Assembly: GCA_002245135.1 (NCBI GenBank)
Contig: NGBS01000003.1
Location: 1 to 64,000, forward strand
Direction: 5' to 3'
Length of the DNA: 64,000 bases
Source: Proteromonas lacertae
Taxonomy: Eukaryota
Shown here: positions 31,837 to 43,701 of the stretch, piece by piece
How the letters are laid out: each line of letters begins with the position of its first letter
Numbering within the stretch: position 1 is the first letter of the stretch
The notes under the pieces: model-generated
Databases searched by the model: none
What the model was told of the DNA's origin: nothing
What the model saw: only the letters and a program-made list of their open reading frames with translations
Program-made: the position numbers and the translations under genes

Positions 31837-34800
31837 TCAAAATTCCATTAGTATATCTTTCATATTATTTAGATTAAAATCTTTTGCATACACATCTTTA
31901 ATGAATTGACATTTACAGCTATGTAATTGTATATTACCAGATAAGGTTATTTCTGTTTCATCTATAAAGAATTTTGTTATTTTTCTGTTATCTGTTGGTA
32001 ATAGTACTTCTTGCACTTTCATTTTTCCTGTTTTATTATTATCACGATTCTTTACTCCTATTAAGTGTGAAGTTATTTGATGTTCATCATTTACAATTGA
32101 TTGTTGTGAAGTGTTTCTTCTAGATGAAACAGAAATATAATAGAAGTTAGACCATTCCATTTCTAATTTTAAACATATCATACATTCTTTAATAATATCA
32201 TTACATTCTCTTTCTTCTACATCATTTACTACATGAATAAAACAATTATTTAATAAGTAAATCATTTCTCTATTCTCTAGAGTTGCTAAATGAAGCAAAT
32301 ATATTCCTTCATTCTCTTTTGATACATCACCTTCTTTTTTTGTAGTAGAGTATATATCTCCATCAAATAATTCTTTAAATTTTTCAAAATAACCTACCTT
32401 TATTCTCTCTAATCTAATACCTTTTTTTCCATCTAGCTTATCACCATAATATAAACAGTTGTACCATACTAATTCTTGAAACAACAATTGAAATAATTGA
32501 TGATCTTTTTCATCAGACAAATTATTAAATATATTTTGAATTTCTTTTACATCATCTTCTTCAGCTTTGTGTCTTATACAATCATAAATATAGTCAAATA
32601 TATCATTAGATATAAACTCCAATTCATATTCATTGATTCTATCATAACATTTACTTGTTCTATCTTCTTCTTTAAATGGTAAAGAATACTTCACTAAATA
32701 ATGACTTAATGTAGTATCAAATAATACTGTCCTATTTGCAGATATCTTTACTTCTTCTCCATTTTCGTTTGGTTCATTTGGATATAGATATGTAATTAAA
32801 AATTCTATATATCCAATACCACCTATTATTCTTTTTATACCTATTGTGTATAATTCACTCCAATAATCTTTACCATAACATTCCTTATATATTGCTGAAT
32901 AGTAGATATGTCTTGGAACATTTCCATATTTCTTATTAAATCCTTTTGCTGTATTTACTAAATCAGGAGGTAAACATTTTTCTTCCCATTCTACTATCTC
33001 TTTATCACTAAATACATCCATATAATAAAACACATTTTTACCTGGAGAAAAATAATAATTTTTATAATTCTGATAATCTGGTGAGGTTATATATAATGAA
33101 ATTAAAGAATAAACATCTCCCACATAAAGATTATATGAATCAGATATAGCTATATCCACATATTTATATTTGTCCTCATTATATGGACATATTTTTAATC
33201 CATTCAAGTAATAATGATTACCTTTCTCATCGTTTCCTTGTTTAAATATCGATGCTTGAATTGGATTTATAAACTTCCCACCTAATTTATTCACTTCTAT
33301 TTCCAACTTATTATTTAAGTCAATAATATTTTGTAACAAAAATATTATAAAGGATGTTTTTCCACATCCTGGATTTCCTCTTAATAAAATATTAATTCTT
33401 TCTTTAAATTTTGTCTCCATCATTTCTTTTTCTTTTTCTTTCATTATTCTGTCATTTTCTTCTACTTCATCATCATCATCTTCTTCTACTTCATCATCTT
33501 CTTCTTCTTCTAATTTTTCATCTTCTTCTACTTCTAATTTTTCATCTCTTTCTTCTTCAAAGAATTTAATGTTTTCTTTATCATCATTCACAAATGTTTT
33601 ATATGCACTTTTAACAGTTTCGTATATATCTGATTTGACACTTAGTTCTTTAATTACTTTGATTATATTATGTTCTTTATTATACTTATTCTTTTTTCTA
33701 ATCCATTCATTCATTTCGTTAATAATAATTCTGATGTTCAACCTAGCATCATCATTAATTTCTATATAATCCATATAGTCATTTAACTTTACAAATAAAA
33801 TATATTTCTTTAGTTCACTCCAAATTTCTTTATAAACATCTCGAATAAAGACTTTCCTTTCAGGATATTGATATACATCATATTCAATGCTTATTGTATC
33901 ATCTTTATTTATTGTCACAGGATGATCAAATATTTCGCATAAAGAATTAGTTTCTATAATTAATATATAATAATAACAGTAATAACATACTTGTACAGGA
34001 TTTACAATATTTATATAAATTGCCTTTCATTTCTTTAATATCATTAAAAGCAACATCTAATTCTTTTGTATCACATGAATTAATATCCAATTCTTTCATT
34101 TTTTTTACTTTTTCATTATTTGGATCTAACTCTATACTATCATTGATTTTTCTCAACTCATCAGTAATTATTGTTATTTTATCATCATTTGTCATTTCAT
34201 TTACATTACAATTTGTTAAATCTCTTTCAATTGTATTTGGATTGTAAAAGATTTGATTAAATGTATTTCTATCAATAACAATTTCAGGAATATCTTTCTT
34301 CTGTTCATATTTTTTAATAAGTAAATTTGAATTTTCTTTAGGTTGAAATTCTAATACAGCCTTATCTCGAATAAATCTTTTTTCTTTTACTTTTTCACTT
34401 TCAAAAGATGCTAGATACTTACGTAATTCTATTAAACTCATTTTTAATGTACTAAATTGAAGTCTTTTTGATTTTATAGAAATTATAATTTTTATTTGCT
34501 TGTCATTTAATACTATTCCTGTATTTACTCTTTTTTGGGGATTTTCATCTGAAAATTCATTCCAATTATAATTCTTTTTCATCTCCTTAATCATTCTATC
34601 TTGAAATAATCCATATTTTCCAAAGCTTACTTCACCTTCTTTAAATGGAGCTTTTACTTTATCATGATCGTATGAGACAAATATTATATTAAATATTGGA
34701 TTACATATTTCTAATTCATTTATTGCTTCATTCAAATCAATTTTTCTTATCCACTATAATAATAATAATAATAAAAATATACATTTATTATTTCTTTTTT

Positions 34801-37800
34801 CATTTCTCCTTTTCTATTATCATCCAAGTTATTGTAATATTCATCCACTAAATAATCATCTAAATCATGAACTAGTTTTCTATGATGTAAAGTAACATCA
34901 TCATTTCCTACTGTTTCTACCACTGTATTTAAACTAACTTTTATTGATTCGTTTGCTTCTTCAATATCATACATATCTACTAACTGTAGTTGCTTTTGTA
35001 AGAACAACAATTGGTAATCTAGTGAATATAATGCATATTTTAGCTGTTGAAGTAATTTTACCTCATATGTATGTAAATCAGAAGATAATTTCTTCATTTC
35101 ATCAGTTTTTTCAAAGTGTTTTTTTAGTTCATTATTTAAACTACATAACCTAATCTCAAATAATATTTTATCATTGTTTGTTGTTTCTAACAATTGCATA
35201 AATGATCTGAACAGTTTCTCCTTTATATACAACTCATTCTGTAACTCATCTAGTTGAAGTAATTCTGGAATAGTTTGTAGTTTATATATTTCATTCTTTA
35301 ATATTTCTATTCGATTTGGCATTATAAAATCCAGTAATTCTTCTATTTGTTTCTTTAAAATTAGTATTTGATCTGAAGGTAATGTATTTTGTAATGTTTC
35401 TAATTGATTGTTTAATTTTGCTATCTGATCTGATGGTGATATTCCATTTTGTAATGATTGTATTACACTCTGTAATACATTTTTTTGAATTTCTGGTATT
35501 TTATTTTGCAAATTTTGTATTTCAAGCTGTAATATTCCTGCTGTATCTGCAGCTAATTCATTCTGTAACTTTTGCTGTAATATTTGTATCTGAATTTGTG
35601 GTACTTCATTAAATAATCTCATTATTTGATTCTTTAATGTATTTATTTGATCTGATGTTAATTCATTTAGTAATGTTTCTATGTGTTTATTTAATTCTTC
35701 TATCTGATCTGATGGTGATATTCCATTTTGTAATGACTGTATTACACTTTGTAATATAAACTTTTGAACTTCTGGTATTTCATTCTGTAATTCTTTTTCC
35801 ATATTATATAATCTATCTATATAAATCTTCAAATCTTCGTTTTCATTTTGCCTATAACTATCTTCATATTCTTTTATGTAATTTTGGAATTTTGTAATAT
35901 GAATTTGTGGTACTTCATATAATAATCTATTCATTAGATTCTTTAATGTTTCTATTTGATATGGTGATAGAAGCAATGTTAGTATTTGATTGAGGATTAT
36001 TATCTGTCCAATTTGTGCTAATTCTTTCATTTTATTTTGTAATATACCTAATACAATTTTTGGTTGTTCATTATAATGTTTCTCTAACATTGCGATTTGA
36101 AGCAGATGAAGATTCTGTATTGCAAGTATTTGGTTGTCCAACTTAGTAATTGTGGGTGATAATTTTTCTGATAATGAACATATCTGTGTAGAATAAATAT
36201 CCATTATGTTATATAATGATGTTGTTAAATCATTTAGGTCTGGAATATTTGATAATTTATCCTTTAGCAATAATATTAAGTAGTTCAATTCTTGTGGTTT
36301 TTTATTCAAATGAATTAATTTATTCTTTAATTCTTGTAACTGGATTGATAAATCATCAATTTTTATGTTGCTTAGTCTCTCAAACTGCATGAAAATTGTA
36401 TCATGTGCTGTAGTAATTTCATCTGATAAATACTTAATAAAAGCATCTGTCGTTTCTTCCAATGTTTTTATATCAGCAGTTAATGTTTGTATTTTGGGAG
36501 ATAAAGAAGTAGTACTAGCTGCATTTAAGGTAGCTGGTGAATTTGATAATACTGATTTTATCTCTTCTGCTATATTCTTCCATATCAATAATTGGTTTTT
36601 GCATTTATTTTTTCCATTTATTAATGTTTTTATTTGTACTGATCAATGTATTAATTCTTCCTTCTATTAATGACACTATATCATTATCTTCTATTCTTTT
36701 TTCTATTCTATTATTTAATTTAACCATATCTTCATTATTTATATTGGAATTTAGTACTGTAAATTTATTGATATCACTATCCAAAACATCCTTGAATTGC
36801 TTCTTCCAATCATCATTATACACATCAAGAAAACTTGATTCAATGTATTTTCTGCAGGTGATTTCATTAATCAAAAACTAAATTAATAAAAATAAGATAA
36901 AATATACATAACTTTCACATAATATTCTCTTTCTTTCATCTATCAATAATTTATATTTTTCTTTCAATTCATTGGGTATATAACCGTTATGATACAATGA
37001 AGATGATATTACCTCTTCATTTCTATCATTAGCGTTGTTAAATTCTCTCAAAAACTCTATTATTTCGCTTTTACGTTGATGATACAACATCTATTCAAAG
37101 TATAATAATTATACATTTATACATTTAATAACACTATTACAGTATTTACAGTAGGATGATTATCTGCTATTGTCATTTGTACAGGAGTAAAACTAAATTT
37201 ATTAATCATACAGCCATCAATTCCTGGAAAATCTGAGATTTCACTAAAATCTATGTATAATTCATGAATATCTTTACTAACTTTATCCTCATAATTATTA
37301 ATATCATCTGTCAATTTATCCATATAATGCTTATGCGCAGGAATTGATATAACATCATTATTCATACTTCTATTAGCAAAAATAATATGAATCATTCTTT
37401 CAAAAACATTACCATTTCTTCCTTTCCTAAACACATTATATAATTCTTCATAATTCTCTGGGTTATTAAAATGATTATGTAAAATAATTTTGGCTATTTT
37501 ATCTGATAAAAACTTCAATCGATCAGGAATGCCATTAACTTTATCCACATCATAAATAAAGTACCTTTCGTTATATTTTTGTGGAATAAATACAGGTAAT
37601 CCTATATTCCTATTAAATGCTAATTCATGGTAAGGAAATGAGGGTAATAAACATTTGCTAAATCTTTCATAGATTATTTTTTCTTCATCACTCAATTGAG
37701 TTATATAAAACTGTATTGCAGCTCTTTTATTACTCATAATTTTGCACTTAGTTGCATTTGGAGAGCTGACCATTACTACTACTTCATCATTACTAAACTC

Positions 37801-43514: not shown

Positions 43515-43601
43515 TTTCAAAATCTGAACTGTATATATTCCTATACTTCAAAAATTTATAAAATAATGATATCAGGAAACCTTATAGATGAGTTAATGTA
43601 A

Positions 43602-43701
43602 TTTGAATGAATAGCCAATGAAATATCTCCAAGTGTAACCAATCAAATAGCTTAATAGAATAACCAATTAAATCTCTTAAAATTAACCAATCAAAATTCG
43701 T
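43602..43701 (-). promoter_or_regulatory. Putative promoter of gene A with four CCAAT boxes spaced 23-25 bp apart
   Basis: CCAAT at 43615, 43639, 43664 and 43687. The flanks TTTGAATGAATAGCCAAT and AACCAATCAAAATTCGT are shared with the gene B promoter. Confidence 0.65.

Follow-up and report, generated by a model that had tools for sequence, protein, structure and literature searches.

A tandem pair of large Crinkler/RHS-type genes in Proteromonas lacertae with four NTPase modules, one of which carries a predicted nuclease

Two large adjacent genes, called A and B here, were analysed in a 64,000-nucleotide stretch of DNA from the protist Proteromonas lacertae (assembly GCA_002245135.1, contig NGBS01000003.1, positions 1 to 64,000; hereafter the window). 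They carry four nucleoside triphosphatase (NTPase) modules of the kind found in Crinkler/RHS (CR) proteins, whose core, as defined by Zhang et al. (2016), consists of an NTPase, a helix-turn-helix and a restriction endonuclease (REase) domain (via PMC5289972, PMC11342252, PMC11064341 and PMC6131194; here and below, PMC numbers stand for the accessible parts of the papers cited). All features of the two genes lie on the minus strand.

Gene models and the frame break in gene B

Eight open reading frame (ORF) segments, all free of stop codons, join through five short introns into the two genes. The first-pass annotation had proposed this assembly, with one 1-nt shift and products of about 1524 and about 2089 amino acids, and it was upheld, the frame break lying in gene B. 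Gene A (38897..43514; ATG at 43514, stop at 38897) has two exons and codes for 1524 amino acids, comprising two SPRY-like domains followed by CR modules A1 and A2. Gene B (31837..38235; ATG at 38235, stop at 31837) has five exons and encodes module B1, helical repeats, an unknown region and module B2; its 2089 amino acids are the summed lengths of the segments, a figure that holds only when the break is read across.

The intron of gene A (40241-40199, 43 nt) and the four introns of gene B (37122-37091, 32 nt; 36907-36878, 30 nt; 34782-34754, 29 nt; 33990-33954, 37 nt) all start with GTAT, end with TAG and have a GC content of 5-16%. The window contains 16 ORF junctions: 10 in coding ORFs of neighbouring genes, 3 within the A/B locus and 3 in antisense shadow ORFs, the last of which were excluded from the comparison. 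All 10 junctions in neighbouring genes have the form GTAT...TAG (28-56 nt, GC fraction at most 0.12), and the introns of the locus fit the same pattern. The first intron of gene B offers four in-frame donor options, so that the length of this gene is uncertain by up to 9 amino acids.

The frame break lies at or near a run of six A (36605..36640), the upstream frame stopping at 36605. Codon-usage scores pass from one frame into the next at about 36,640-36,600 without a spacer, and the first methionine in the translation of the new frame comes only after about 75 codons; a single gene interrupted by a one-base break therefore fits best. The break may have arisen by misassembly of the A run, or it may be a genuine lesion; in the latter case the product would be about 520 amino acids long and hold B1 alone. 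Two alternative introns were rejected. A 70-nt intron across the break is the sole one able to absorb it, but it is atypical (23% T, 20% GC), and a 34-nt intron that would give B2 its own start right behind the B1 stop has 35% GC, with the other frame scoring as coding through it. Over the approximately 10.9 kb of coding sequence in the two genes there is one break and no internal stop. An element with CCAAT-like repeats upstream of gene A (43600..43705) matches one upstream of gene B (38241..38299, aligned part 38241-38289) over 49 nt at 88% identity (E = 7e-9).

Four CR-type NTPase modules

When a CR profile built from 5 sequences was run against all six frames of the window, it matched only the four modules (as five domains, A1 being split by an insert). 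A 19-sequence profile of canonical CR proteins, none from this protist lineage, scored the four modules at 76.8, 49.0, 34.0 and 26.4 bits, compared with 14.2 bits for the best of 400 shuffles. Five members of this profile (P0137, P0139, P0141, P0143 and P0145) had been found with exon 1 of gene A; the A1 score is therefore partly circular, and those of the other three modules are not. Profile-profile comparison with CR gave probabilities of 98.9 for the A1 subfamily and 98.4 for the B2 subfamily, with an alignment that runs through the helical region. Atlas neighbours of B1 include a CRN cluster (0.96) and an RHS cluster (0.91). A phmmer search with exon 1 of gene A against 1.84 billion proteins returned 25 matches, among them lineage relatives from Logan, four SPRY-like proteins and canonical CR proteins, including a Crinkler of Phytophthora, and a metagenome scan supplied 31 further loci. 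In relatives of the modules, nSTAND3 matches were seen over the Walker A region.

The CR/RHS kinship suggested by the first-pass annotation is thus borne out by the profile scores of all four modules and by the Atlas neighbours of B1, and CR family membership, as judged from sequence, is solid for the NTPase and for the nuclease of B1. Housekeeping AAA proteins, named at the outset as the identity that would speak against this kinship, were ruled out because the CR profiles fit the modules end to end. The Walker A lysine and the Walker B aspartate are present in all four modules. The same motif order had been claimed for four P-loop modules; four CR-type modules were indeed found, but B1 has a shorter fifth motif region and A2 a changed serine-proline motif.

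For the ORFs of the locus no match exceeded a cut-off in Pfam, NCBIfam or PADLOC, and a PDB sequence search with alignment A3 gave short P-loop matches such as McrB. No relative of B1 was found by a word-seeded homology search among 1215 candidates of near length. Viral contigs (9 stretches) and prokaryote genomes (8) contained no relatives, and the B2 alignment found none in JGI metagenomes (96).

A structure model of B1 obtained from a 34-sequence alignment had a predicted local distance difference test (pLDDT) score of 65.7 (33.6 for single-sequence prediction). It matches NLR/STAND and AAA+ folds (best Z = 10.1, root-mean-square deviation 4.7, 156 residues aligned) and has helices at 245-292 (pLDDT 60-70) between NTPase and nuclease. 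A comparison with STAND and PD-(D/E)XK folds had been advised; for B1 it yielded the STAND/AAA+ matches, which helicases equal, and no REase structure was among the fold matches listed, in searches that covered mainly residues 26-241 and barely touched the nuclease part.

Nuclease status of the modules

Module B1 (37147..38160) is a header-less CR NTPase (Walker A at amino acid 69) followed by a predicted nuclease with E279, H283, D340, Q353 and H360. A nuclease-only profile was built from 13 canonical rows and scored on 24 sequences; B1 obtained 15.0 bits, P0130 13.2 bits and every other sequence at most 0.2. Read by eye, the catalytic E, D and Q of B1 occur in 12, 13 and 12, respectively, of the 13 canonical rows spanning the region.

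Module A1 (40290..42017; Walker A at amino acid 554) consists of a CR-type NTPase, a helical region and a nuclease-like tail with lysine at two catalytic positions, those of E and Q, the D being kept. In all 7 rows of the A1 subfamily, lysine stands in place of the first catalytic glutamate, and the aspartate and the second lysine are kept in all 4 rows that reach those positions. Because the changes are shared, they look selected and not like decay; on this evidence an A1-type site could be dead or unusual. Module B2 (31840..33951; Walker A at amino acid 192 of the exon) couples a CR-type NTPase to a divergent nuclease-like tail, conserved with P0124 and P0146, which has Q at the E position (with an adjacent E) and no D motif. 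Module A2 (38897..40000) has a CR-type NTPase and a helical region, and its ORF ends about 45 amino acids past the first nuclease helix. The relative P0121 ends close to the edge of its 3397-base contig and is therefore uninformative on whether this loss is shared. No nuclease remnant scored in any frame downstream of A2, and a remnant or inverted fragment between genes A and B was sought and ruled out. The presence of a nuclease-like motif in at least one module, as first noticed, was confirmed for B1 only (by profile and residues); the wider description of the locus as NTPase-nuclease cores fails for A1 and B2, which are altered, and for A2, which ends before the nuclease.

Two cores per gene

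P0121 (1041 amino acids, a single ORF) aligns to A1 and then to A2 at approximately 31-35% identity. A module tree was computed from 37 sequences and 263 columns, six short loci and fragments being excluded. In this tree the lineage modules form one clade (support 99) that divides into three subfamilies: A1 together with P0127 and the N-terminal core of P0121 (99); A2 together with the C-terminal core of P0121 (100), B1 being sister to these two (100); and B2 together with six relatives (100). From these sequence comparisons we conclude that the two-core fusion of gene A is real and old, and that the fusions joined different subfamilies and were not duplications of one core. The earlier suggestion of two NTPase cores per polypeptide thus holds for gene A, where it recurs in single-ORF P0121; for gene B it depends on reading across the frame break, and no relative of the helical and middle region was found among 7991 candidates scored (near lengths only).

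Headers, inserts and helical repeats

The two SPRY-like domains of gene A (domain 1, 43053..43367, amino acids 50-154; domain 2, 42426..42797, amino acids 240-363) are 39% identical and score 30.7 and 63.5 bits, respectively, with a profile of lineage SPRY-like relatives. Together with SPRY clusters of the Atlas (0.92 for the gene A header), these scores bear out the SPRY-like header proposed in the first pass. The domains have no direct Pfam match, a PDB sequence search with the region gave 0 matches, and 2 of 4 SPRY-like relatives match Pfam SPRY below its cut-off. P0136, P0138, P0140 and P0142 are small SPRY-like proteins, possibly single exons, from a family in related organisms with at most 12 members per cluster. 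Three further sequences, P0144 (A1-type N-terminal half), P0122 (A1-type C-terminal half) and P0154 (SPRY-like), come from Logan contigs of 4406, 4406 and 4405 bases and may be pieces of one SPRY + A1 gene.

Headers on the shared CR core vary: two SPRY-like domains in gene A, none in B1 and P0127, an OTU-like one in P0180, and headers without an assignment in P0121 and P0130. In P0180, a close relative of B2, the B2-type module is preceded, unlike in gene B, by a header resembling OTU deubiquitinases (E = 8e-4 with Pfam OTU, below its cut-off), in which the position of the catalytic histidine appears altered. The ubiquitin-like Crinkler header PF20147 has no match in 7 ORFs of the locus; the same profile gives P0137 62 bits.

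A charged insert of about 195 amino acids (41190..41777; 29% E+K) follows the Walker A helix of A1, and the profile match splits across it; from Walker A to the Ser-Pro motif there are 269 amino acids in A1 versus 61-94 in most relatives. The insert of B2 (33397..33789, about 130 amino acids, 37% E+K) lies between the first helix and Walker A, which are 157 amino acids apart, compared with 56-283 in four relatives and 23-34 in canonical CR proteins. Both inserts are probably coiled coils; P0146 gives a weak Pfam coil match. The helical repeats of gene B (35296..35969) are Q/L/I-rich with a period of about 93 amino acids. Among relatives, which are only 30-50% identical, insert lengths and headers vary. 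Hydropathy gives no sign of a signal or membrane segment, with no hydrophobic 19-mer above 1.64.

Host lineage and genomic surroundings

The GC content of the window is 26.7%, published values being 27.0% for P. lacertae and 21-23% for tortoise Blastocystis (PMC12129017). The best named match of the neighbouring AP-4 mu gene is in Blastocystis sp. Blastoise (42%), and two Logan proteins are closer (93% and 83%); in a single-gene tree of 64 sequences with long branches it groups with Blastocystis sp. Blastoise (support 100%). Sequence thus places the host in the Blastocystis/Proteromonas group, in line with the early impression of a lineage that does not look like a plant pathogen.

A lone 5S rRNA gene (31379-31497, plus strand; RF00001, 90.7 bits), the only Rfam match in the window, faces gene B at 340 bases from its stop. 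A 515-nt duplication (27331-27845 and 30468-30982, plus strand) has 99.2% identity and points to a recent rearrangement beside the locus; its second copy, which forms the 3' portion of an ORF without Pfam matches, adjoins the 5S gene. A Macro-domain gene (45449-46093, plus strand; Pfam Macro, E = 1.5e-29) lies approximately 2 kb upstream of gene A, from which a ZIP transporter separates it, with no evidence of a link. An ORF at 47848-50184 (plus strand) has a SET and two Rubisco-LSMT substrate-binding matches and is apparently a tandem double methyltransferase. Perfect 108-nt tandem repeats lie within an acidic ORF (window 518-1290).

Comparison with known systems

A typical CR-REase protein has one ATPase and then one REase (PMC11342252). 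Genes A and B share with CR proteins the core order and motifs, the variable N-terminal headers and the presence outside plant pathogens, which has already been published for free-living and non-pathogenic eukaryotes (PMC5289972). They differ in having two cores from different subfamilies per chain, in the altered or missing nuclease of three of the four modules, in inserts of 130-200 amino acids inside the ATPase of A1 and B2, and in the SPRY-like header of gene A and the OTU-like header of the relative P0180. Oomycete CRN effectors (Pfam Crinkler PF20147; P0137) have an NTPase core that aligns, whereas genes A and B are without the ubiquitin-like header, fall into a separate clade and are much larger. 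Likeness to trypanosomatid RHS proteins (Pfam RHSP PF07999) consists in the Atlas neighbour of B1 and in weak RHSP matches of 4 of the 19 canonical relatives; the headers differ, and RHSP and RHS_N have no match in the ORFs of the window at E up to 1.

Sensor-helper pairs of STAND/NLR proteins have a P-loop switch fold, an adjacent gene pair and one armed partner. Genes A and B resemble them in each respect, as far as the fold matches of the B1 model indicate, but their sequence family is CR, their putative binding domains are placed N-terminally or as inserts, and a C-terminal LRR, TPR or WD40 array is absent. No NB-ARC or NACHT domain followed by a repeat sensor is matched by Pfam in the ORFs of the window, and the likeness is at fold level only. 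Wolbachia CifB is a CR-related protein that also pairs active with inactive REase domains, but it has four tandem REases, whereas in A and B each nuclease-like unit follows its own NTPase (PMC11342252).

Genes A and B are a lineage-specific variant of the known CR family. Judged by title and abstract opening, none of the papers listed in literature searches reported a CR protein in Blastocystis or Proteromonas or a double-NTPase or SPRY-headed CR protein, the likeliest place (Zhang et al. 2016 and its supplements) lying outside this search; nor do 'crinkler' or 'RHS' occur in the accessible main text of a Blastocystis genome paper (PMC12129017). Within that scope no earlier report was found of the double core, the conserved pseudo-nuclease subfamilies, the internal inserts or the SPRY/OTU-like headers.

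Possible function of the locus

The toxicity of CR proteins is attributed to the REase, with the NTPase regarded as its regulator, and some of these proteins have been proposed to target invasive DNA within the cell (PMC5289972). A Crinkler-like gene that acts as a genomic parasite has been described (PMC12957317). Since the DNA-cutting motif is intact in a single module, a likely arrangement is one armed nuclease accompanied by three disarmed modules in a regulatory role. We give a probability of roughly 40% to the reading that A and B, as tandem members of a lineage-specific CR family, work inside the cell as an ATP-gated nuclease system, with B1 as the sole predicted DNA cutter and A1, A2 and B2 as disarmed ATPase partners. 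The two genes would be co-expressed; the SPRY-like domains, helical repeats and inserts would bind a trigger or partner; the ATPase modules would assemble together as AAA+/STAND-type ATPases do; and assembly would license or restrain B1, whose target might be invading DNA or the cell's own genome. The CR scores, the restriction of nuclease residues to B1, the lysine replacements shared within the A1 subfamily, the Walker residues present in all four modules, the NLR/STAND and AAA+ fold matches of the B1 model, the conserved A1+A2 fusion, the lack of a membrane segment and of a Crinkler header, and the common upstream element speak for it.

Several points weigh against this reading. The nuclease call for B1 is based on motif residues and on a score that is modest (E = 3e-5, from a small search), and the STAND-like fold match of the B1 model ties with helicases and ORC/Cdc6. 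A2 keeps the catalytic E and then its ORF ends, and gene B is broken in this assembly; decay would give both as well. In the second core of P0121 the Walker A motif is degenerate and the Walker B aspartate is missing, and the lineage clade (99) may partly reflect common AT-rich composition.

A decaying gene family is nearly as likely as a nuclease with pseudo-nuclease partners. The locus would then be a cluster of CR genes, selfish or derived from toxins, that evolves by birth and death, with modules and headers shuffled by recombination, partly decayed, gene B being a recent pseudogene or two fused remnants, and with no coordinated system; we consider this somewhat unlikely as it stands, though a serious rival. 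Besides the frame break and the truncation of A2, the variable insert lengths and headers among such divergent relatives fit it. So do the published findings that 78 of 118 T. brucei RHS genes are pseudogenes (PMC6393297) and that CR cores originated from mobile elements (PMC11342252). However, apart from its single break the long coding sequence is free of internal stops, P0121 retains the A1+A2 fusion at low identity, the altered nuclease residues are common to the A1 subfamily, and no terminal repeats or transposase were seen near the locus.

It is improbable that the genes encode domesticated nuclear ATPases like trypanosome RHS, with the ATPase kept, cutting mostly lost and a role in chromatin or transcription. 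The nuclease site is missing in three of the four modules, and growth depends on RHS proteins, which are purified together with RNA polymerase II and chromatin factors (PMC6393297), but the nuclease motif is retained in B1 and P0130, the headers are highly variable and the subfamilies diverge fast. Least probable are exported effectors or toxins against the animal host or gut microbes, like oomycete CRNs: the core is the same as in P0137, a Crinkler protein of Phytophthora capsici, a SPRY or OTU-like header might allow contact with host proteins, and signal peptides are often missing from CR headers (PMC5289972), yet the ORFs of the locus have no ubiquitin-like Crinkler header, the proteins are 1500-2100 amino acids long and B1 is without any header.

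The ATP-gated nuclease reading has a bolder and decidedly speculative form, a protist innate-immunity or programmed-death system. Here SPRY-headed and insert-bearing pseudo-nuclease modules of a co-regulated pair would detect an invader and assemble together with the one armed nuclease. The pair would be the CR equivalent of sensor-helper NLR pairs, with exchangeable SPRY/OTU-like headers across the Blastocystis lineage. Protist defence against viruses and mobile DNA is a largely open field, for which the A/B pair is a testable candidate. If the pair is expressed, it would add a common group of gut protists to the range of this toxin family, and, with one armed and three disarmed modules side by side, it would offer a compact test of the role of the CR ATPase.

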